Below, in pieces: positions 27,671-38,802 of a DNA stretch of 64,000 bases. The notes under the pieces are model-generated. The model was not told the origin of the DNA. It saw nothing but the letters and a program-made list of their open reading frames with translations, and searched no databases. The position numbers were made by a program, and so were the translations under genes. Source of the DNA: an uncultured Planctomycetaceae bacterium (GTDB lineage: Bacteria > Planctomycetota > Phycisphaerae > SM23-33); NCBI GenBank assembly GCA_964632015.1, contig CAZWAT010000001.1:1834-65833 (forward strand). The letters are read 5' to 3'. How positions within the stretch are numbered: the first letter of the stretch is position 1; each line of letters starts with the position of its first letter.

Positions 27671-28312
27671 ATGGCCGATAATCATCAGAAGAAAGACAGA
27701 AAGACGGCAATTCTCGCCGCTGCCGAAAAGGTTTTTGAGGAACACGGTTACTCCTCGACAACCATCGAAGCAATCGCGCTGGAGGCGAGCACCGCTAAAG
27801 GTAGTGTATACAATTACTTCAAGAGCAAGGAGGAACTCTTCGGGCAAGTGGTTTCAAAGGTTATCGCGGTCAACGAGGCGGACGTCAACAAGGTAATGTC
27901 CACCAGCAAAATCGCTTCTGAAAAGCTATTGTCTGCAATTGACATGTGGTTTGACCGCCTCGCCTATTACAGCAGAATAGGCAGGTTGATGCTTGAAGCC
28001 CGGGCCGCATCCGCCGCCAATGACGAACATGGCTCTTTAATTGCCGCCCAGTTCAAGGGGATTTATGAGCTGATGTGCAGAATCGTCAGCACGGTCATAG
28101 CCGAAGGTATCCAGTCGGGGGAGTTTTCAAGCACAATAGACGCCAGACAGGCTGCCATGCTCACAGTCGCCCTTCTGGACGGAATGCAGATAGAGTGCAT
28201 TCTGAACGTGGGAGTTACACCTGACAGAAATCTGCTGGAAGTGCTCAAGAGCGGAATTGTTTCGTCGCTGCGGGCTGGCATTATCAAGCAGGAACCGCAC
28301 AAAGAAGGGTGA
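27671..28312 (+). CDS. TetR/AcrR-family transcriptional repressor
   Basis: N-terminal HTH: RKTAILAAAEKVFEEHGYSSTTIEAIALEASTAKGSVYNYFKSKEELF. Confidence 0.85.
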   Translation: MADNHQKKDRKTAILAAAEKVFEEHGYSSTTIEAIALEASTAKGSVYNYFKSKEELFGQVVSKVIAVNEADVNKVMSTSKIASEKLLSAIDMWFDRLAYYSRIGRLMLEARAASAANDEHGSLIAAQFKGIYELMCRIVSTVIAEGIQSGEFSSTIDARQAAMLTVALLDGMQIECILNVGVTPDRNLLEVLKSGIVSSLRAGIIKQEPHKEG

Positions 28313-29514
28313 GGATGATAGTGCGTCAAGGGAAGACAAAATACGTGTCACCCAGCAGAAAGCTGAAGAAACTGCCGCGATGGCTTGTACCTGGACTGGT
28401 GATCACCGGTGGCGTACTGACGGTGATTCTTCTGGCGGTTCTTCTTGGGAAGCCTACGGGCATCGACGCGCCCTCGGGCAGGCCCCTCGTCAACGTGCAC
28501 GTCGAGCAAGTCGTCCCCGTGCCCGTGGTGGAGGACGTCTTTCAGATCAACGGAGTGGTCGAGCCTCTGCGAACGGTCAGCATTGCCGCCGAGGTTGCGG
28601 GGCAGGTTGAAGGGCGAGGTCCTGCCGATCGACCCTTGGAGAAAGGCGATCATGTCGAGGTCGGAGACATCATCCTGCGAATCAACACCGAGCTGCTTCA
28701 GGCGGACTACAACCGTTACGATGCCCAGAGACAGTTTGACGAGGCAGACCTCGAACGCGTGATAGAGCTGAATAGAGTTCGAGCAGCCACCGACAGGGAG
28801 GTCGAGGAGGCACGAACAAGGTTGCAGATTTCACAGGCTGCCTACGAGTCCGCGCGTGCCCAGTTGAGGCGATCCACCATCACTTCACCCATCCCAGGAT
28901 ACGTGAACTCGCTGCCGGTTGAGGCGGGCGAGTATGTCACATCCGGCACGGTCGTCGCTGACATTGTGCAGGACGATCCCGTCAAGGTTATCGTTCATGT
29001 ACCCGAGCGCAATATCAGTTATCTGAAGATCGGCGACACGCATCGCATTGTCGACAAGCTTGGTGGATCGATTTTCGCCAGTAATAACAATATTGACGAG
29101 TCGCATACGTGGGAAGGCACGATTACCTTCATCAGCGCTACCGCCGATACGGCAACCCACACAACACGTATCGAGCTTACGGTACCCAACCCGCGTCAAA
29201 GCCCGCAAAGGCTCAGGGCCGGACAGATCGTACTGGCCAGACTTTTGCGGCAGGTTCATACCGATGCCATCATGGTTCCCTTGCGCGTGCTTATTCCCCA
29301 GCCGATGAACGGGCAGCAGCGATACGTCGTCTTTGTCGAAGAAGATGGAATCGCCCAACAACGAGTAGTAACCCCCGGCCAGATTCGCGATGACATGGTG
29401 ATGATCGTAGGTGGCGACCTTGAGCCTGGCGAGATGCTCATCACCGAAGGTCACCGCTACATCGGCCCAGGCCAGCCTGTAAGAATCGTTCCGGCAAGCG
29501 AGGCGAACTGGTGA
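28309..29514 (+). CDS. RND efflux membrane fusion protein (periplasmic adaptor, HlyD/AcrA family)
   Basis: GTG at 28309 overlaps the tetR stop; an alternative ATG is at 28315. Single N-terminal TM, then coiled-coil and lipoyl/beta-barrel motifs (EVGDIILRINTELLQADYNRYDAQ...RSTITSPIPGYV). Confidence 0.8.
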   Translation: MRMIVRQGKTKYVSPSRKLKKLPRWLVPGLVITGGVLTVILLAVLLGKPTGIDAPSGRPLVNVHVEQVVPVPVVEDVFQINGVVEPLRTVSIAAEVAGQVEGRGPADRPLEKGDHVEVGDIILRINTELLQADYNRYDAQRQFDEADLERVIELNRVRAATDREVEEARTRLQISQAAYESARAQLRRSTITSPIPGYVNSLPVEAGEYVTSGTVVADIVQDDPVKVIVHVPERNISYLKIGDTHRIVDKLGGSIFASNNNIDESHTWEGTITFISATADTATHTTRIELTVPNPRQSPQRLRAGQIVLARLLRQVHTDAIMVPLRVLIPQPMNGQQRYVVFVEEDGIAQQRVVTPGQIRDDMVMIVGGDLEPGEMLITEGHRYIGPGQPVRIVPASEANW

Positions 29515-32500
29515 TCATTACTAATGCGGCAATCAATAATCGAATCACCGTAGCCGTGCTCGTGGTGCTTATCGCCATCCTCGGTGTGATGAGCTACCTT
29601 AGCCTTCCTCGCGAGGCGGCCCCGGACGTGCCCATCCCGTATGTCTTCATCACCACCATTTACGAAGGCGTTTCCCCCGAGGATGTCGAGACCGCGGTGA
29701 CGATGAAGATCGAGAAAAACCTCACGGGCATCAGCGGCATCAAGGAAATTCGATCCGCAAGCTCAGAGGGCGTCTCGACAATTCTTGTCGAGTTCATGCC
29801 GGACGTACGAATCGAGGACGCCCTTCAATATGTGCGTGACAAGGTCGAGCAGTCCCGCGGCGACCTGCCCACCGAAGAGCAACTAAGGGAACCCGTCGTA
29901 CGAGAAATCAACGTGGCAGAGTTTCCCATCCTCACGTTCAACATCTCCGGACCCGTCTCACCAGTTGTTCTCAAATCTATAGCGGACGAGCTTGAAGACC
30001 GTATCGAAGAGATTCCCGGCGTGTTGAACGTCGATGTCCTTGGCGCGCTTGAGAGGGAGATCCGCCTTGAGGTAGACCAAGACCGCATCGCCGCCTACGG
30101 GTTGACAATTCCTGAGCTGATCACTCTCGTCCCCTCCGAGAACGTCAACATATCGGCAGGTGGCCTGCGAACGCCCAACGTCAGGTTCAATGTACGTGTG
30201 CCCGCGGAGGTGGTTGACCCGACGGAGGTTTACGACTGGCCTCTCGTCGAGCGCGATGGAAAGATGATTTACCTGGCGGACATCGCCGACGTGCGCGATA
30301 CTTTTAAAGACCGCGAGCAGTATTCCCGGCTCGATGGGCAGGAGTCCATCACACTCAGCATCCAGAAGCGGGTCGGAGCGGACGTCATACCCATTGCCGA
30401 CACCATCAAGGCAATGCTAGCCGAAGCGAAGAATGTCGTCCCCAGGGATGTCACCTTCAGCATCACCATGGACCACAGCGACGATATCCGCATGATGGTG
30501 GCCGACCTCGAAAACAACCTATTCGCCGCCTTCGTGCTGGTTATAGTTGTGTTGATTATTTCGATGGGGTGGCGTGCGGCGGTGGTCGTCGCCACGGCGG
30601 TGCCCCTGAGCATGCTAATGAGCCTCGCGATCATATCGGCTTTAGGCCATACGCTCAACATGATCGTGCTTTTCAGCCTCGTGCTTGCAGTGGGCATGCT
30701 GGTCGATAACGCAATTGTCATCGTCGAGAACATTTTCAGACACAGGGAGCTGGGATACGACAGGATCGAGGCCGCCAAGAAGGGCGCTGCCGAGGTCGCC
30801 TGGCCGGTCATAACCTCGACGCTTACGACAGTTTCGGCGTTCATACCACTGCTGTTCTGGTCGGGGATCATGGGCGACTTCATGAAGTATCTGCCCATCA
30901 CCGTTATAGTCGTGCTTTCAAGCTCGCTGTTTGTCGCCCTTGTGGTAAGCCCGGTCGTTGCGACACTGCTGTCATCGAAGGTCAAGTCGCATGAACGTGA
31001 AACCCGCATCCGCAGATGGTACCGCTGGTTGCTCAATTCAATGCTCGAACATCGAGCGACGACGCTGATTGTCTGCATACTGCTTCTAGTGGGTCTGGGG
31101 GTCGTATTCGTACGGGTTGGCCCGGGGTTCGAGTTCTTTCCTACCATGGACCCCAGGAACTCACTGATCAACATCCGAAGCCCCCAGGGAACCAGCGTCG
31201 AGCGATCTGACGAGCTTGCCCGCCAGGTCGAAGAGCAAATCGAGAAGCTCCGCGGCCCTGAAGACAATCCGCACATTGACTATGTGGTTACCAACGTCGG
31301 CGGGGCGAGCGGAGGAGACCCATTCGGCGGCGGGGGTACAGGCCCGCACATGACCAATATCACCCTTACTTTTCCGGATTACGAATACCGGCCTCGCCCT
31401 TCCGCGGACATCATCGCCGAACTTCGAGGCATGCTCACCGACATCACTGGCGCGGAAGTCAAGGTAGAGCGGCAAAGAGAAGGCCCGCCAACAGGTGCCG
31501 CGGTAACCGTGCGCATCGTCGGCGAAGATTTAACCACCCTCGAAAAGCTGGGCGAAGAGGCGATGGAAGCAATTGTCGATGTACCCGGCCTGGTCAATCT
31601 GCGCAGCGACCTTGAAGCGACCAGGCCCGAACTTGCATTCATCGTCGACAGGCAACGCGCAAGCAGGATGGGACTCAGCACCGCGACAGTGGGCAACTTC
31701 CTGCAGACCGCCATCTTCGGATCAAAGGTGGGAACGTTCAGGCAGTTCAACGACGAGTACGATATAACCATCCGCCTGCCCGAATCGCAAAGGCAGGACA
31801 TCAATGATCTATTCCGACTGCATGTGCCCAATGTCACCGGCGAGGCGGTGCCCCTGAGCGAACTGGGCACATTTGAATACCGCGGAGGACTGGGAACCAT
31901 ACACCGCATCAATCAGCAGCGGGTTGTTACCCTCACCGGCGATGCCGAGGGAAGACTAGCGCCGGAAGTACTCGAGGACGTAATGAGCCGACTCGATGAG
32001 TTGAATCTACCAGACAACTATGAGATCCAGTACGCCGGCGAAAGAGAACAACAGGACGAAGCAAGCCGATTCCTCCTCGGCGCGTTCGCCATGGCCTGCC
32101 TGTTGATTGTGCTCATCCTGGTCGCCCAGTTCAACACACTTACCGCCCCGCTGATCATCATGACAACCGTAGTGCTTTCACTGATAGGCGTGCTGCTGGG
32201 GCTGCTGATAACACACCTGCCGTTCGTTATCATCATGACAGGAATCGGAATCATCAGCCTTGCCGGCGTCGTTGTGAATAACGCTATTGTTCTGCTCGCA
32301 TATACCCGCCAGCTTGAGAAACAGGGAATGGATGTAATATCAGCCACACTGTGCGCGGGTGAAACAAGGCTCAGACCCGTTCTGCTCACGGCGATAACAA
32401 CCACCATCGCACTCATTCCAACCGCAATTGGAATGGGTTTCGACATTCATACCTTCCGCTGGGTCTGGAGAAGCGACTCAAGCCAGTGGTGGCGATCAAT

Positions 32501-32636
32501 GGCGGTGGCAATTATCTTCGGCCTGACTTTCGCCACCTTCCTCACACTTATCATTGTGCCTACCCTCAATGTTTCGCTGCACAAACTCAGGACAAAACTG
32601 GGACTGGTGAAGTCAACCACCTCAGAACATTCCTGA
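29511..32636 (+). CDS. RND (HAE1-type) inner-membrane efflux transporter, AcrB/MexB family
   Basis: 1041 aa in a 12-TM/two-large-loop layout. GTGA overlap with the MFP gene. No outer-membrane factor gene is adjacent. Confidence 0.85.
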   Translation: MIITNAAINNRITVAVLVVLIAILGVMSYLSLPREAAPDVPIPYVFITTIYEGVSPEDVETAVTMKIEKNLTGISGIKEIRSASSEGVSTILVEFMPDVRIEDALQYVRDKVEQSRGDLPTEEQLREPVVREINVAEFPILTFNISGPVSPVVLKSIADELEDRIEEIPGVLNVDVLGALEREIRLEVDQDRIAAYGLTIPELITLVPSENVNISAGGLRTPNVRFNVRVPAEVVDPTEVYDWPLVERDGKMIYLADIADVRDTFKDREQYSRLDGQESITLSIQKRVGADVIPIADTIKAMLAEAKNVVPRDVTFSITMDHSDDIRMMVADLENNLFAAFVLVIVVLIISMGWRAAVVVATAVPLSMLMSLAIISALGHTLNMIVLFSLVLAVGMLVDNAIVIVENIFRHRELGYDRIEAAKKGAAEVAWPVITSTLTTVSAFIPLLFWSGIMGDFMKYLPITVIVVLSSSLFVALVVSPVVATLLSSKVKSHERETRIRRWYRWLLNSMLEHRATTLIVCILLLVGLGVVFVRVGPGFEFFPTMDPRNSLINIRSPQGTSVERSDELARQVEEQIEKLRGPEDNPHIDYVVTNVGGASGGDPFGGGGTGPHMTNITLTFPDYEYRPRPSADIIAELRGMLTDITGAEVKVERQREGPPTGAAVTVRIVGEDLTTLEKLGEEAMEAIVDVPGLVNLRSDLEATRPELAFIVDRQRASRMGLSTATVGNFLQTAIFGSKVGTFRQFNDEYDITIRLPESQRQDINDLFRLHVPNVTGEAVPLSELGTFEYRGGLGTIHRINQQRVVTLTGDAEGRLAPEVLEDVMSRLDELNLPDNYEIQYAGEREQQDEASRFLLGAFAMACLLIVLILVAQFNTLTAPLIIMTTVVLSLIGVLLGLLITHLPFVIIMTGIGIISLAGVVVNNAIVLLAYTRQLEKQGMDVISATLCAGETRLRPVLLTAITTTIALIPTAIGMGFDIHTFRWVWRSDSSQWWRSMAVAIIFGLTFATFLTLIIVPTLNVSLHKLRTKLGLVKSTTSEHS

Positions 32637-32831
32637 TAATCATAACCTCTTAATCAACCCACTTAACTACGGGCAAGGAGGTAATTCACCCCCTGCCCAT
32701 TGTCCATGGTTCTGACATAATTGTCCTTTACCGGGTCCACTATTACGATTTTGTAACGTTTCTTCATCAGGCCCCCGGCACACCGACAATGTAACTCGCT
32801 TTACGCTAAGCATTTCCAATTTTTCTTCTTT

Positions 32832-32848
32832 GTGGCACGCACTGTGCT
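32832..32848 (+). promoter_or_regulatory. Probable sigma54 (-24/-12) promoter of amt-glnK
   Basis: TGGCACG-cact-gTGCT matches the consensus TGGCACG-N4-TTGCW at all but one position. GG-to-GC spacing is 12 nt. It lies 55-70 nt upstream of the amt start. Confidence 0.55.
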
Positions 32849-32920
32849 TTTTATCGCGTGCAGCCGGGGCGTGCCTGGCGGGACTGGAAAGGAAAAAGAA
32901 TCGTGAAGCGAGATTGTCGT

Positions 32921-34249
32921 ATGTACGGATTGGCAGTTGTCGGAGTTGTGGTTGGTCTTCTGGCCCGACCGGTAATGGCCGGGGAGGCGGAACCATCCGA
33001 GGTCGTGGTATCCGTGGACACCCTCTGGGTGCTGCTTGGCGCCTTTCTTGTGTTTTTTATGCAGGCAGGGTTTGGAATGGTGGAGGCGGGATTTATCAGG
33101 GCCAAGAATGCCTGCAACATCCTCACCAAAAACTTCATGGACTACTGCACCGCCAGCATCGTGTTCTTTCTGGTGGGATATGCGTTCATGTTCGGACCTG
33201 GAAACGGATTCATCGGCATGGGCGGATTTGCAATGTCAAACGCGCATAACCCCAGCGGCGTACCGATCTGGGCGTTCTGGCTGTTTCAGGCTGCCTTCTG
33301 CGGAGCCGCCGCCACTATCGTAGCTGGCGCGATGGCCGAGCGAATGAAGTTCGGTGCTTACCTGGCGTACACAGCCGTCATCAGCGCGGTGGTCTACCCG
33401 ATCATCGGACACTGGGTGTGGGGAGGGGGTTGGCTTGCGGAGATGGGATTCGTCGACTTCGCCGGATCGACCGTGGTTCACGCCACAGGCGGGTGGTCGG
33501 CGTTCATTGGTGCGGTGCTTCTGGGAAGCAGAGTTGGCAAGTTCAACGGAGACGGAATGGCCAAGGCAATTGCCGGTCACAGCATTCCGCTGGCGAGCCT
33601 GGGGGTGTTCATCCTGTGGTTCGGATGGTTCGGATTCAACTGTGCATCGAGCCTTTCGGTCGGTGATGGTGAGCTTATCGCTCTTGTCGCCGCCAACACG
33701 AATCTGGCGGCCGCGGCCGGGGCCATTTCGGCAATGCTTACCGTGTGGATGCTGTTCGGAAAGCCCGACCTGTCAATGACCATGAACGGCGCGTTGGCGG
33801 GCCTGGTCGCCATCACCGCCCCATGCGCGTTCGTCGATCCATGGGCTGCGATCGTGATAGGCGCGATCGGTGGGGTCATTGTGGTTTTTGGCGTGCGACT
33901 TCTCGACAAAATCGGCGTGGACGATCCTGTCGGAGCGATTCCGGTGCACGGGATGAATGGGATCTGGGGAACCATCGCCATAGGACTTTTCGCCAGCAGA
34001 GATCTGCTCCTCGACGATATGGTCTCGCATGGATTGCTTCTTGGTGGCGGCATGGGTCAGCTTCTCGTTCAGTCGATTGGTGCGGTATCCGGCGCGGGTT
34101 TCAGCGTGCTGGCAATGGGACTGGTGTTTCTCACCATCAAAAAGACCATCGGCCTGCGGGTCAGCAAGGAAGATGAACTGCGGGGGCTGGACATCGGTGA
34201 ACATGGGCTGGAAGCATACGCGGGTTTCCAGGTCTTCAGCAATATTTGA
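32921..34249 (+). CDS. amt: Ammonium transporter (Amt/AmtB) with signal peptide
   Basis: ATG at 32921; an alternative GTG at 32903 has an AAGGAAA RBS. Signal peptide MYGLAVVGVVVGLLARPVMA. Signature FFMQAGFGMVEAGFIR and an 11-TM layout. Confidence 0.85.
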   Translation: MYGLAVVGVVVGLLARPVMAGEAEPSEVVVSVDTLWVLLGAFLVFFMQAGFGMVEAGFIRAKNACNILTKNFMDYCTASIVFFLVGYAFMFGPGNGFIGMGGFAMSNAHNPSGVPIWAFWLFQAAFCGAAATIVAGAMAERMKFGAYLAYTAVISAVVYPIIGHWVWGGGWLAEMGFVDFAGSTVVHATGGWSAFIGAVLLGSRVGKFNGDGMAKAIAGHSIPLASLGVFILWFGWFGFNCASSLSVGDGELIALVAANTNLAAAAGAISAMLTVWMLFGKPDLSMTMNGALAGLVAITAPCAFVDPWAAIVIGAIGGVIVVFGVRLLDKIGVDDPVGAIPVHGMNGIWGTIAIGLFASRDLLLDDMVSHGLLLGGGMGQLLVQSIGAVSGAGFSVLAMGLVFLTIKKTIGLRVSKEDELRGLDIGEHGLEAYAGFQVFSNI

Positions 34250-34274
34250 TTATCCTCATGTGGAGAATTGACAA

Positions 34275-34616
34275 GTGAAACTAATCATTGCCTACATTCA
34301 ACCCGAAAAGCTTAATGACGTTAAACAGTCACTTTACGCCGCCGAAGTATTCAGGCTATCCGTTACCAATGCCATGGGCTGCGGACAGCAGAAAGGCTAC
34401 CAGGAGACATATCGCGGCGTGGACATAGAGGTAAATCTGCTCAAAAAGGTAAGAATCGAGATCGCCGTCAATGACGACTTTGTCACTCCCACCATCGACG
34501 CCATTATCAACGGCGCGAGGACGGGCAATATCGGAGACGGCAAGATCTTCGTGCTTCCCTTGGAGCAGTGCTTCCGAATCAGGACGGGCGACACTGGACC
34601 CCAGGCCGTCGGCTGA
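34275..34616 (+). CDS. glnK: Nitrogen regulatory protein P-II (GlnK-type, amt-linked)
   Basis: 113 aa with a T-loop ([12 protein letters not shown]) that keeps the Tyr in YRG. It lies immediately downstream of amt. Confidence 0.8.
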
Positions 34617-34660
34617 TGCGACAACAACTGAACCGACTGTATTTACAAGGACACGATCAC

Positions 34661-35629
34661 ATGCGTATTAACAACAAGCTATCAGCAATCATGACAATTT
34701 TGACCATTGCGTCATTCGCCGGTGGACAGCAGGCTATGTCTCAGCCGACGGATCCCACCACACCAACCTCTTCAGGACCACAATGGCAAAAGCCCTTTCC
34801 CCTGGGCTTTTCGCTGGAGTACACGCTGGTTAGCGACTTCGTCTGGCGAGGGATGAACCTGAGTGAATATCCCGGCGAGGGCAGAGAAAAGCCCAATCAC
34901 CAGCTCTGCGCAACAATGGAACTTGATACTACGGACATTCTAGGGGAAGGCACATATTTCGGCACGCTGGGTGGATCAGTGTGGTTCCAGTGGTATGCCG
35001 CCCAGCAAAGACTCACGCCATGGGCGGATACGAACCTGCAGGAAGTCGACTTCGGCGTAAGCTGGACCTACGAAATCGACACGATCAACACATCAGTGGA
35101 GCTTGGTTGGCTGGCTTATCACTTTCCGCCTTATCGCAGGTCCGGCTCGCCAGAATCCGATGTAAGCTCGACATGCGAGGTCTACGCTAAAGTGAGCTTC
35201 GACGACAGCCTGATCTTTGGCAGGTCGCTGTTCAATCCATACATTGCCTACTACCACGACATGGACCTGGTGAAGGCAGGATGGTTTGAGTTGGGCGTAA
35301 GCCACGATTTTGAACTATCCCAACTGGGCATGAATGATATGCCGGTTCTCAAGGATATCACCATCACTCCATCGGTTGTGCTGGGCATATCCCACAGGTT
35401 TTATGACAAGGGCGACGTCGGTAGCGCAAACTCAGTCGCTACAAGGCTTGGCAATTTGGAGTACGGGCTTGATATTACATACGACCTGTCCGGGGCGCTT
35501 GGCATGCCTCAAAAATACGGAACCCTCTCAATTGGAGGGTTTATTAACTTTTCACAGGCGTTTCACAACACCAGCCCAGACATCAACGATGTGCTGTATG
35601 GAGGCATGACATTGGGTTATTCCTGGTAG
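34661..35629 (+). CDS. Predicted outer-membrane beta-barrel protein (paralog 1)
   Basis: ATG at 34661. Signal peptide MRINNKLSAIMTILTIASFAGGQQAMS. Alternating-hydrophobic strands. C-terminal LGYSW ends in an aromatic residue, as OMPs do. Shares the motif WRGMNLSEYPGEGRE with the downstream paralog. Only 45 nt after glnK, with no terminator between. Confidence 0.55.
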   Translation: MRINNKLSAIMTILTIASFAGGQQAMSQPTDPTTPTSSGPQWQKPFPLGFSLEYTLVSDFVWRGMNLSEYPGEGREKPNHQLCATMELDTTDILGEGTYFGTLGGSVWFQWYAAQQRLTPWADTNLQEVDFGVSWTYEIDTINTSVELGWLAYHFPPYRRSGSPESDVSSTCEVYAKVSFDDSLIFGRSLFNPYIAYYHDMDLVKAGWFELGVSHDFELSQLGMNDMPVLKDITITPSVVLGISHRFYDKGDVGSANSVATRLGNLEYGLDITYDLSGALGMPQKYGTLSIGGFINFSQAFHNTSPDINDVLYGGMTLGYSW

Positions 35630-35648
35630 CGTTGCACGTATTCTTCCC

Positions 35649-35686
35649 GCCGTCGGCTTGAGTCGTCAGGCCGGCGGCTTTTTTTT
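35649..35686 (+). terminator. Rho-independent terminator after OMP paralog 1
   Basis: 9-bp stem GCCGTCGGC / GCCGGCGGC (one G.U pair) with a 12-nt loop, followed by T8. Confidence 0.6.
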
Positions 35687-35890
35687 GCTCCGTTTTCCGC
35701 TGCCCCCGTCAGGTATTTCAGAGATGGAGCAAAATAAAAAAAAACATACCCGATTTGGTTTCGTCTTCTCAGCCTGCCTATAAATGGCGTGAGTCAAATC
35801 CCTGTGTATGACGTGGGGGGGATTGATCAGCCGCACATGAGCGGCAGTAGAAGGACGAATAGAATGGACTTCATAGAAGGAGATTCAGGC

Positions 35891-37066
35891 ATGAATGTTC
35901 GAAAAGGGCTATGGTTGAACGCAACGGTCGTTCTGGTAATGGTTGTGGCAAGCAGCACGGGGTCGCTGCTTGCTCAGCAGCGGGTGGATACCGCTGATCG
36001 ACCCGGCGCATGCCCCCCTGCTCCGGCAGCGAGGTCCGGGGACAGCCAGATTATTGGTGATCCCGCCGCTTGTCCCCCGGGAGTGGTGGCGGAAGGCGAG
36101 TCCCGTGATACACGGGGTCGCGATGATGTTTTTCGGTTCGATCGTTATGATCGTGGCGACGACGCCGCTACCGAGGTGGCTGCCGACATATGGGCGGTTC
36201 ACAATGGCGCCATGCCCAAAGTCAAGGCCCCAAGGGCGGAGCGTTCCCATCCCGACAAGCCCATTCCGCTGAGTTTCATAGTGAGTTACGGTGTTGCCAC
36301 CGACCACGTCTGGCGAGGCATTAACTGGAGTGAATATCCAGGCGAGGGAAGGGAACGATGCAACCAGCAGGCCGGTGCGGGTATCGAGTTTGACACCGGG
36401 GCATTCGGTGTCTTCGGCGGTTCCGTGTGGTTTGATTGGTTCCACGGTACAGAACAACTTGCAGGAAGAAGCATAGGTGTTCCCCTTGAGAGCAACTACA
36501 CCGCGTATTGGCGGTATCCTATTCGTGCTATCAGCACCGACATCGAGGTGGGCTGGAGTTACATCCGCTTCAACGCGTTCCGCGAAACAAGCCAGGAACT
36601 TTACGCCCGCATCCAGTTCGATGACAGCGGTCTGTGGGGAACGCAAAGCGCCTTCCTTAATCCTTATGTCTTCTATGCTATTGAATACCACCATACCGAC
36701 TGGACGTCCTGGCTGGAGTTGGGTGTCCAACCACGCTGGGTAATGGCCGATGTCCCGGCGCTGCGTGAGGTACCGGTAGTGCGGGACTTCTGGATCTCAC
36801 CGCACCTGTCAGTCTCTTGGGATTGCGACTATGTTGGAAACATGATTACCGTAAATCCCAATGTTACCGATTCAGGGCCTACCAACCGATGCGCAAACGC
36901 CGTCGCCGGAGTGGAGCTTGGATATGACCTCGGGCATGCGTTCAACGTGCCTGCCAGGTACGGCTCGATCGTTATCATAGGCTTTATCGACTACTCGTAC
37001 GCGTTAGGATCCGAAGAGCTCAGCGACGAGCTGTGGGGTGGAGTCAAGCTGGCATACCTGTGGTAA
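35891..37066 (+). CDS. Predicted outer-membrane beta-barrel protein (paralog 2)
   Basis: ATG at 35891 with GAAGGAG RBS. Signal peptide LNATVVLVMVVASSTGSLLAQQ. Carries WRGINWSEYPGEGRE. C-terminal KLAYLW ends in an aromatic residue. Confidence 0.55.
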   Translation: MNVRKGLWLNATVVLVMVVASSTGSLLAQQRVDTADRPGACPPAPAARSGDSQIIGDPAACPPGVVAEGESRDTRGRDDVFRFDRYDRGDDAATEVAADIWAVHNGAMPKVKAPRAERSHPDKPIPLSFIVSYGVATDHVWRGINWSEYPGEGRERCNQQAGAGIEFDTGAFGVFGGSVWFDWFHGTEQLAGRSIGVPLESNYTAYWRYPIRAISTDIEVGWSYIRFNAFRETSQELYARIQFDDSGLWGTQSAFLNPYVFYAIEYHHTDWTSWLELGVQPRWVMADVPALREVPVVRDFWISPHLSVSWDCDYVGNMITVNPNVTDSGPTNRCANAVAGVELGYDLGHAFNVPARYGSIVIIGFIDYSYALGSEELSDELWGGVKLAYLW

Positions 37067-37620
37067 AGATGATGTAGAATCACCTTCCGCATGACTGCGC
37101 GGAAACAGAAGCACGGCTTGGGTCGCTGCGGGAGTGGCCTGGGCCGTGCATCTTTATTAAGATTAGTTGCACAATTTTGTAATCTTCATGGAACTTTATT
37201 CACAAATATGTAGCATTCCTCTGAACGCCCGCCCCCTCTTCATATTTGCATAACTCGGTCATATACCACCACTTAGGCAGATCCTTTTATTTTGGCATGG
37301 CGTATGCTTATCAATTGGTTGCACTTGTGATTTGACAGGACATCGGGCCTGCCCGGAGGGCTGAGAGTGTCGGCCTTCCGGCCTGGCTGGCGATCCGCTG
37401 CCTGGGCGGACGCTGGATGTTCTTTTTCCCACCCGACCGGTGTTCACAGCGCCGGTCGGGACATATTCATCATCTCAAAAACAGGACGATATGCAAAGAT
37501 TCCGGGACGATTCCATAATCCTGGCGATTATTTGAGGTACAGGCGTCTCGTGTGCATATCATTCGCTTGACTTCATGTCGAGCCAATAGCTACTTTGCAG
37601 TTGAAATTCAGGAGCCTACC

Positions 37621-38802
37621 GTGAAAGAACGAAAACTGCGTATCGGGATGATCGGAGCCGGGGGAATCAGTGGAACTCACTGCCAGGGCTGGACCAAACT
37701 GGACGATTGCGAGCTCGTGGCGATTACGGATATCAATCCCTCGGCATCGGCGCACAGGGCACAGGAGTTCAGCATACCTTCCGTCGAGGCGAGCGCCGAA
37801 AAGCTCATCGCCCGCAAGGACATCGACGCGGTGGACATAGTTGTTCCCAACCACTATCACCGGACTTATGCAATCGCCGCCATGAATTCAGGAAAGCACG
37901 TCCTGTGCGAAAAGCCTCTGGCACTGACCTGCAAGGACGTACTCGCGATGATCGCTGCCGGCGAGAAGAACCGCGTAAAACTCATGGCTGCCCAACATAT
38001 GCGATACCAGGATGACACCTTGGCGATGAAAGACTACATCACAAACAATCCACCTGGCGACATCTATTACGCAAGGGCTTGGTACAACAGGCGGCGACAG
38101 TTACCCTGCCGGGCCGGTTTCATGTATATGAAGAACTCCGGCGGAGGCTGTTGCATCGATGTCGGTGTGCACATTCTGGATACCGCGATGTATTTGATGG
38201 ACAATTTCGAACCCGTCAGCGTGAGCGGAATTTCCCTTTTGAAGCTTGCTCGCAGATCCGACGCATGGAGCGAATGGGGCACCATCGACAAACAGAATAT
38301 CGACGTTGAAGATTTCGCCGCAGGCATGGTTCGCTTTGCCAATGGGGCCGCTCTGTCGCTGGAATGCAGCTTCATGCTTAATCAGAAGTCCCGCGCTACA
38401 CACAAGATCGACCTGTTCGGAACAGAGGCGGGCATAAGCTGGCCCGAGTGCGAAATTTATTCGTCGATGAACAACCGGTTCGTTGATACCAGAATTGAAT
38501 ATTTGACCGGTTACCCGGCCCACCACGCGGTGATACGTGCTTTTGCCGAGGCGGTCATGGGCAATACCGACGTTCCCGTTCCACCGCACCAGTCGCTTAA
38601 GGTTATCGCGATACTCGAGGGTCTGTACAAGAGCCAGAAGACCGGCAAAGAGGTTTCTCTGGCCAAGCGAGACAAGCCCGTCCGCAAGGGCAAGCACATT
38701 ACGGTCTCGCCCGCCAGACCCGCCGCCGGCAACATCGCGCTACGCGTTTCGCCACCCAGGGCGCGACAGGACAGGACGCGAAACCGCCCATCCGCCGGGT
38801 AA
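37621..38802 (+). CDS. Gfo/Idh/MocA-family oxidoreductase with a roughly 50-aa basic C-terminal extension
   Basis: GTG at 37621 with CAGGAG RBS 9 nt upstream. Rossmann start KLRIGMIGAGGISGTH. The tail ...KRDKPVRKGKHITVSPARPAAGNIALRVSPPRARQDRTRNRPSAG is unusual for this family. Confidence 0.65.
   Translation: MKERKLRIGMIGAGGISGTHCQGWTKLDDCELVAITDINPSASAHRAQEFSIPSVEASAEKLIARKDIDAVDIVVPNHYHRTYAIAAMNSGKHVLCEKPLALTCKDVLAMIAAGEKNRVKLMAAQHMRYQDDTLAMKDYITNNPPGDIYYARAWYNRRRQLPCRAGFMYMKNSGGGCCIDVGVHILDTAMYLMDNFEPVSVSGISLLKLARRSDAWSEWGTIDKQNIDVEDFAAGMVRFANGAALSLECSFMLNQKSRATHKIDLFGTEAGISWPECEIYSSMNNRFVDTRIEYLTGYPAHHAVIRAFAEAVMGNTDVPVPPHQSLKVIAILEGLYKSQKTGKEVSLAKRDKPVRKGKHITVSPARPAAGNIALRVSPPRARQDRTRNRPSAG

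Follow-up and report, generated by a model that had tools for sequence, protein, structure and literature searches.

A predicted outer-membrane beta-barrel encoded behind amt and glnK in an uncultured Phycisphaerae bacterium, a candidate nitrogen-regulated cation channel

Why should a gene for an outer-membrane beta-barrel follow closely on the genes for an ammonium transporter and its P-II regulator? The question is raised by a stretch of 64,000 nucleotides (64 kb) on contig CAZWAT010000001.1 of an uncultured Planctomycetaceae bacterium placed in the Phycisphaerae, which we call the window and within which all positions are counted. A preliminary description of this DNA, made from its letters alone, had noted a sigma54-type promoter followed by amt, glnK, and two paralogous genes for outer-membrane proteins, here named OMP1 and OMP2, and had suggested a nitrogen-regulated outer-membrane channel. 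On balance, we lean toward a reading in which amt, glnK, and OMP1 form one operon and OMP1 is a cation channel, induced by nitrogen limitation, that feeds Amt across the outer membrane.

The proposed amt-glnK-OMP1 unit and its control region

The first gene, amt (32921 to 34249, ATG start), encodes a 442-residue ammonium transporter that matches PF00909 (Ammonium_transp) over the full length of the model (positions 1-399 of 399; E value of 3e-126, 421.8 bits) and scores 442 bits against TIGR00836, above the curated cutoff of 343.3, as expected of a member of the Amt/MEP/Rh family. Beginning 25 nt downstream, a GTG-initiated gene (34275 to 34616) encodes a 113-residue glnK-type P-II signal protein, recognized by its matches to PF00543 (2.8e-24, 85.8 bits; cutoff 25) and PRK10665 (4e-30), by its length, by the T-loop ETYRG with its tyrosine visible in the translation, and by its place beside amt. 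Its scores fall under both the GlnK and the GlnB equivalog cutoffs of NCBIfam; it is a P-II protein, and the name GlnK is taken from context only. The order amt-glnK had been thought unusual, a view that we cannot uphold: it is common to every linked relative discussed below. This order is normal in Bacillus (nrgAB), actinobacteria, and archaea and is standard outside enterobacteria.

OMP1 (34661 to 35629, ATG start), the last gene of the proposed sigma54 operon, encodes a 322-residue secreted protein with a predicted 12-stranded beta-barrel, a divergent Gcw_chp/TorF-like putative channel. As had been described, it stands close behind glnK, and a terminator appears only after it: the spacer between the glnK stop and the OMP1 ATG is 44 nt long and contains no terminator-like hairpin, and an intrinsic terminator (a 13-bp stem with 9 G-C pairs, then T8) lies at 35649 to 35686. 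These features, the four genes, the promoters of amt and OMP2, the activator sites upstream of amt, and the hairpin after OMP2 are all on the forward strand. A second in-frame ATG, at 34616, shares nucleotides with the stop codon of glnK (TGATG, 34614-34618); a start there would add 15 residues to the n-region of the signal peptide and would permit translational coupling. The ATG at 34661 is the choice of the database gene callers (database protein P0001, 322 residues).

Upstream of amt, a gene-free stretch of 284 nt, which separates it from the end of an RND efflux gene set at 32636, carries the -24/-12 element TGGCACGCACTGTGCT (32833 to 32848). The earlier claim of a near-consensus element is borne out: the doublets are 10 nt apart in the correct GG-N10-GC register, there is one mismatch to TGGCAC-N5-TTGCW, and the element precedes a gene, as in a sigma54 promoter. 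It is the sole match with at most one mismatch in the window, a count that is not significant by itself, as 2.4 such matches are expected in shuffled sequence. Its significance comes from its place, 72 nt ahead of the amt ATG, and from its conservation in relatives, whose promoters have the family consensus TGGCACG-N4-GTGCW. We compared 78 related loci from GTDB species genomes (metagenome-assembled genomes of Phycisphaerae and other Planctomycetota and one record labelled Actinomycetota). In 28 of them a sigma54 site of like quality is found no more than 500 nt upstream of the barrel cluster, where about 1 would be expected from a background of 0.025 sites per kb per strand.

Two upstream activator sites accompany this promoter. 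The preliminary description had proposed looking for NtrC-type sites; those present are of an ACA-N4-TGT type and do not follow the NtrC consensus. Site 1, GACATAATTGTC (32714 to 32725), has the exact core ACATAATTGT at 32715, which is 118 nt upstream of the -24 element (-118). Site 2, TTACGATTTTGTAAC (32743 to 32757), came from a relaxed scan and has the core ACGATTTTGT at 32745 (-88), of the form ACG-N4-TGT with one mismatch, 30 bp from site 1. Related loci show paired palindromes with the same 30-bp distance, mostly at -117 to -122 and -87 to -92 relative to TGGCAC. Of 37 promoters, 24 have an exact match at both palindromes and 32 at one or more, for a motif with a background frequency of 0.19 per kb.

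In the relatives, the gene divergent from the promoter region encodes a protein with GAF, sigma54-activator, and helix-turn-helix (HTH) domains. It is present at 29 of the 78 loci, and in 9 of these 29 it faces a barrel gene without amt. Against the NCBIfam NifA model TIGR01817 (cutoff, 528.85), the activator at loci L001 (4179-5750, reverse strand) and L003 (2285-3856, reverse strand) scores 549 bits. The genes around the NifA-scoring activator in the loci examined are those for Amt, P-II, the barrel, and glutamine synthetase, and the gene tables of three loci contain no nif genes. This NifA-type protein may be a general nitrogen regulator of the Phycisphaerae. Read from sequence, these features give indirect support to dependence of the amt promoter on sigma54 (RpoN) and an enhancer-binding protein, and the proposed arrangement of amt, glnK, and OMP1 as a sigma54 unit under a NifA-like activator is well supported.

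Many loci also carry, between the enhancer pair and the -24 element, an A+T-rich segment (window positions 32780-32830; -60 to -25 for the relatives) that contains an inverted repeat (GTAAG/C ... CTTAC/GTTAC) whose arms are variably spaced, and some have an IHF-like WATCAA-N4-TTR match in this interval. The segment may be a DNA-bending site or the site of a third regulator.

The association of barrel and ammonium genes extends well beyond the window. The search of other genomes that had been proposed for barrel genes downstream of amt-glnK found Amt and/or P-II in a same-strand cluster with the barrel gene at 29 of the 78 loci, in either order: 13 are Amt-PII-OMP, 4 OMP-Amt-PII, and 4 Amt-OMP, and several have a duplicated amt-PII pair or two barrels. 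Spacers between P-II and OMP genes are mostly 22-200 nt, and genes for glutamine synthetases of the GSIII and GSI types continue some clusters. L006, the closest relative (69% identical over the best aligned segment), has the order RND-OMP-amt-PII-OMP1-OMP2-oxidoreductase, which reproduces the window neighborhood with one extra paralog. Barrel genes of the more distant half of the family (below ~38% identity) are mostly unlinked to amt, and in the nearest outgroup (42 loci from soil metagenomes with 22-27% identity, 13 of them with more than 5 kb of flank) none of the loci has Amt, P-II, or the activator. Given these counts and the unlinked outgroup, the linkage is a property of the Phycisphaerae clade and lies far beyond chance.

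Stand-alone barrel copies (L004 and L029) keep the sigma54 site and both palindromes. At L004 (6001-8877), this unlinked paralog, promoter and enhancer included, has a Porin_O_P gene and a cluster for molybdopterin oxidoreductase as neighbors. The putative nitrogen regulon thus takes in barrel genes that are not near amt.

Predicted fold, pore, and family of the barrels

Modeling did not reject either protein as a barrel, in keeping with what had been read from their sequences. The alignment-based AlphaFold model of OMP1 (predicted local distance difference test [pLDDT] score of 86, predicted template modeling score of 0.80) has 12 strands after the signal peptide, and the AlphaFold2 model of OMP2 likewise has 12 strands, with a pLDDT of >90 in the barrel and <50 for residues 22-106. 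Each protein begins with a signal peptide and ends in an aromatic residue. The 12-stranded fold of both paralogs is well supported, as a prediction of high confidence. Solved folds near the barrel models are those of KdgM (score, 15.7), VhGalP (15.0), a COG4313 channel (14.9), PcoB (14.6), FapF (14.4), NanC (14.2), and Tsx (13.7), and Foldseek agreed with this list. The nearest are small specific channels (KdgM, NanC, PcoB, and Tsx). Sequence identity to the KdgM/NanC-type channels and PcoB is only 11-13% in the structural alignments and no Pfam match to the KdgM family appeared at E values up to 1, so that the barrels do not belong to the KdgM/NanC family by sequence.

The predicted pore is strongly acidic. 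When strand positions were assigned to lumen or lipid from model strands and hydrophobicity parity over a 37-sequence alignment, the family averages were 13.9 acidic and 2.3 basic residues at lumen-facing positions and 0.4 acidic and 1.0 basic residues at lipid-facing ones. Invariant or near-invariant acidic residues are D59, E128, D130, E173, D200, and D275; loop 1 adds the invariant E69, E73, and E76. Because the predicted pore-facing positions are so acidic, the model suggests a cation-selective pore for OMP1.

The family to which these barrels belong lies at the edge of PF09694 (Gcw_chp). OMP1 scores 22.7 bits against this profile (E value of 1e-4), short of the gathering threshold of 24 bits, and OMP2, far below it, has no match; no NCBIfam model was matched. 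Several close homologs, which have precomputed PF09694 matches, do pass the threshold, as do distant family members with 27-34 bits. A profile word search for remote homologs returned the same clade only; PF09694 proteins were reached by an exhaustive profile search, which gave 744 cluster representatives at an E value of ≤1e-3. In databases, such proteins are named "TIGR02001 family" or "TorF family putative porin." The features of PF09694 proteins are present: a secreted barrel, an N-terminal SDY-x-(F/W)RG strand (VSDFVWRG and ATDHVWRG in the window barrels, the same motif as in PF09694-positive proteins), and a C-terminal aromatic residue. What sets the Phycisphaerae clade apart is an insertion behind the first strand, the almost invariant loop SEYxGEGRExxNHQ. 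Sequence comparison places the window family as a divergent sister clade of PF09694 rather than a formal member.

OMP2 (35891 to 37066, ATG start) encodes a 391-residue paralog of OMP1 (34% identity, E value of 3e-52 by BLASTP). The kinship noted earlier is plain in the common motif VWRG(M/I)N(L/W)SEYPGEGRE and in the terminal W of both proteins. We considered OMP2 as part of the sigma54 unit and rejected this. OMP2 lies outside the unit because the interval 35630-35890 contains no sigma54 site and no exact ACA-N4-TGT, a relaxed scan giving two isolated one-mismatch cores. OMP2 has instead its own sigma70-like promoter, read from sequence as TTGGTT, 18 nt, and TATAAA (35755 to 35784), and the block TTTGGTTTCG...TGCCTATAAATGGC is conserved upstream of its ortholog in L006. 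OMP2 would be a paralogous channel, probably providing basal permeability of the same kind. Between its signal peptide and its barrel lies a disordered N-terminal extension of ~100 residues (residues ~22-106, window 35957-36210), in which two C-P-P motifs and an acidic stretch occur. The extension is kept in orthologs (for example, database protein P0101), and OMP1 is without it; a periplasmic tether or plug is a possible role. A terminator-like hairpin of 17 pairs with a weak T-rich tail follows OMP2 (37111 to 37159).

What OMP1 might carry

We propose the following sequence of events. Under nitrogen limitation, a NifA-like (GAF-AAA+-HTH) enhancer-binding protein, which in this genome would be encoded outside the window, would act from the two palindromes 88 and 118 nt upstream of the sigma54 promoter, and the inner-membrane ammonium channel Amt, the P-II regulator GlnK, and OMP1 would be made together from one operon. 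OMP1, as a monomer-type 12-stranded barrel whose lumen is predicted to be lined with conserved acidic residues, would most likely serve as a cation-selective diffusion channel that admits NH4+, and probably methylammonium, to the periplasm. Amt would capture NH4+ there, so that the outer membrane would not be limiting at low external ammonium. Among possible substrates, NH4+ is the simplest for the predicted cation pore because of the constant partners of the barrel gene.

The gene identities, the barrel fold, the conserved synteny, and the conserved promoter and enhancer architecture were computed. Co-transcription, nitrogen responsiveness, channel activity, cation selectivity, and ammonium as the substrate are what we infer. 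For a substrate-specific channel in particular, the indications are fold similarity and the parity-based estimate of an acidic lumen. The suggestion of a nitrogen-regulated outer-membrane channel in the preliminary description is accordingly strengthened in its barrel, its synteny, and its sigma54/enhancer architecture; on the substrate it goes no further than a presumption in favor of ammonium. A bolder proposal, which we put forward tentatively, is that the whole clade with the SEYxGEGRExxNHQ loop consists of ammonium-dedicated outer-membrane channels that form, with Amt and GlnK, a co-regulated two-membrane route under a NifA-like sigma54 activator. If true, this would be the first ammonium-specific outer-membrane channel described in any bacterium.

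Several points weigh against a channel for ammonium under nitrogen control. NH3 crosses membranes and NH4+ passes general porins, and a dedicated channel is therefore not obviously needed. An acidic lumen suits any small cation, including metal ions and amines, and the lumen-facing positions themselves come from strand parity and hydrophobicity rather than from the coordinates of the models. Neither a NifA-like activator gene nor a GSIII gene was found in the window, and the missing activator counts against the proposed regulation. At ~35 to 40 of the 78 loci the barrel gene has no amt, P-II, or activator beside it, and most of these loci also lack the promoter; the whole family is therefore not restricted to nitrogen control. 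PF09694 relatives also have other neighbors. One stands beside trimethylamine N-oxide (TMAO) reductase in Shewanella (PMC5955497). On two Bdellovibrionota-type contigs (L084, 5001-8276, and L085, 5001-8159), genes for a PAD_porph (agmatine-deiminase-like) protein and an MFS transporter come after canonical PF09694 "TorF family putative porin" genes, on the strand that these occupy; here again the superfamily has a pathway for a small, positively charged nitrogen compound as its neighbor. As these neighbors differ, the substrate varies within the superfamily.

Such observations invite the view that OMP1 is induced by nitrogen limitation without being ammonium-specific, admitting other small nitrogen sources (methylamines, polyamines, amino acids, or urea) or acting as a general small-cation porin, with a shared regulon explaining the linkage to amt. 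We consider this somewhat unlikely. It would accommodate the stand-alone copies that have the same sigma54 promoter and enhancer with no amt nearby, the amine-type substrates suggested by the TMAO and agmatine-deiminase-like neighbors of PF09694 relatives, a lumen selecting cations in general, and the varied substrates of known nitrogen-regulated porins (e.g., the discussion of SAR11 OmpU in PMC3870248 and the Methylomonas porin in PMC12799797). Yet the recurrent immediate neighbors of the barrel gene are amt, P-II, and the activator, with glutamine synthetases in a few loci, and the tight spacing in most linked loci puts the barrel in the same unit as amt-glnK, beyond the sharing of a regulon. 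The gene tables of three linked example loci show no transporter or catabolic genes for urea, amines, or amino acids, the 78 loci having been searched only for amt, P-II, the activator, and glutamine synthetases.

It is improbable, in our judgment, that the barrels are not solute channels at all and are instead plugged or narrow structures with another envelope role (enzyme, anchor, or export pore), co-regulated with nitrogen assimilation. Some of their structural neighbors do have 12 strands without being diffusion channels (autotransporter domains, OMPLA, LpxR, and FapF), and OMP2 has its long disordered periplasmic extension. Against such roles, there is no passenger or enzymatic domain and no match to a catalytic family in Pfam or NCBIfam, the conserved charged residues are concentrated at predicted lumen positions, as in a water-filled pore, and homologous PF09694 proteins are annotated as putative porins. 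Far less credible still is an incidental adjacency, with OMP1 on an unrecognized promoter of its own and unrelated to amt-glnK. Promoter types of Planctomycetota are poorly known, and the neighboring OMP2 is clearly promoted independently; but same-strand clustering with amt or P-II recurs at 29 of 78 loci in different genomes and in two gene orders, for which we estimate a chance of ~0.1% per locus in a genome with a few amt genes, the 44-nt spacer has no hairpin, and where a barrel gene opens its cluster it, too, is preceded by the sigma54 promoter and enhancer. An operon in which OMP1 supplies Amt with ammonium remains the reading we favor.

The surroundings of the unit deserve brief mention. 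Directly upstream of the amt promoter are genes for a TetR regulator, a membrane-fusion protein, and an AcrB-type RND pump (27671-32636); no gene for a TolC-type outer-membrane factor is near this set, and the same synteny is seen in L006. The barrels as outer-membrane partners of these efflux genes were considered and rejected, because the outer-membrane factors of RND pumps are TolC-type and not 12-stranded and because the RND synteny is found only in this closest relative. Downstream of OMP2, a second full copy of the regulon signature spans 37171-37308, with exact ACA-N4-TGT palindromes at 37171 and 37202 (-122 and -91) and the sigma54-like site TGGCATGGCGTATGCT at 37293. It is followed by a structured leader of ~300 nt (37318-37620; fold z of -3.65, no Rfam match) and a gene for a GFO/IDH/MocA oxidoreductase (37552/37621..38802). 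The equivalent spacer of L006 has no such signature. The copy could serve the oxidoreductase gene, or else a small RNA or peptide that is not annotated.

Precedents and comparison with known systems

Specific channels encoded beside uptake systems and nitrogen-regulated porins are both known kinds. PorA of the methanotroph Methylotuvimicrobium buryatense, which ammonium represses, speeds ammonium uptake and aids growth when ammonium is at 0.2 mM; according to the same 2025 preprint, a porin specific for ammonium has yet to be characterized, and amt genes are nowhere mentioned in it (bioRxiv 10.1101/2025.01.28.635327). Porins induced by ammonium limitation have also been seen in Kuenenia and SAR11 (for SAR11, PMC3870248), and a porin belongs to the NtrC regulon of Methylomonas (PMC12799797). 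The remark that the linkage is not a textbook one holds: no description of an amt-linked porin was found in the literature searched, nor was a counterpart of the 12-stranded acidic barrel predicted here, in an amt-glnK operon with a NifA-like sigma54 control region.

The passage of ammonium through the outer membrane usually receives no attention, general porins being assumed to suffice. The present operon offers a concrete and testable candidate for an ammonium channel, in a phylum in which proteins of the outer membrane have hardly been studied, and the uncharacterized PF09694 superfamily gains a functional lead, toward small cationic nitrogen compounds. The analysis also defines a putative Phycisphaerae nitrogen regulon (a NifA-like activator, an ACA-N4-TGT pair at about -120/-90, and a TGGCACG-N4-GTGCW promoter), a signature from which nitrogen-controlled genes of these bacteria, most of them uncultured, can be predicted.

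Of the barrels compared, PorA has the same physiological logic as that proposed for OMP1, but it is a 402-residue, 16-stranded classical porin that has not been shown to be ion-specific, whereas OMP1 is predicted to have 12 strands and lies in an amt-glnK operon. In KdgM and NanC, which take acidic sugars, the lining consists of basic residues; the lumen of the family described here is predicted to be strongly acidic, closer in charge to that of the copper channel PcoB. With PF09694/TIGR02001 proteins such as TorF of Shewanella oneidensis (SO4694), the family shares a weak and consistent sequence kinship, a similar barrel size, a C-terminal aromatic residue, and a gene position beside the inner-membrane or periplasmic system that is presumably served. 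The Phycisphaerae clade differs in its inserted SEYxGEGRExxNHQ loop, in being ~50-70 residues longer, and in its partner, which is amt-glnK under sigma54 here and the tor system for TorF.

The control region most resembles that of the proteobacterial glnK-amtB operon, in which an amt/P-II pair is likewise expressed from a -24/-12 promoter under NtrC and sigma54. The paired enhancer sites, ~100 nt upstream and three helical turns apart, are like those of both NtrC/sigma54 and NifA systems. The activator of the relatives has the NifA architecture (a GAF domain without a receiver domain) and in this differs from the glnK-amtB system. NifA sites have the form TGT-N10-ACA and the NtrC consensus is another sequence; the ACA-N4-TGT palindromes differ from both. 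Finally, unlike the proteobacterial glnK-amtB operon, the operon proposed here has an outer-membrane barrel as its third gene.

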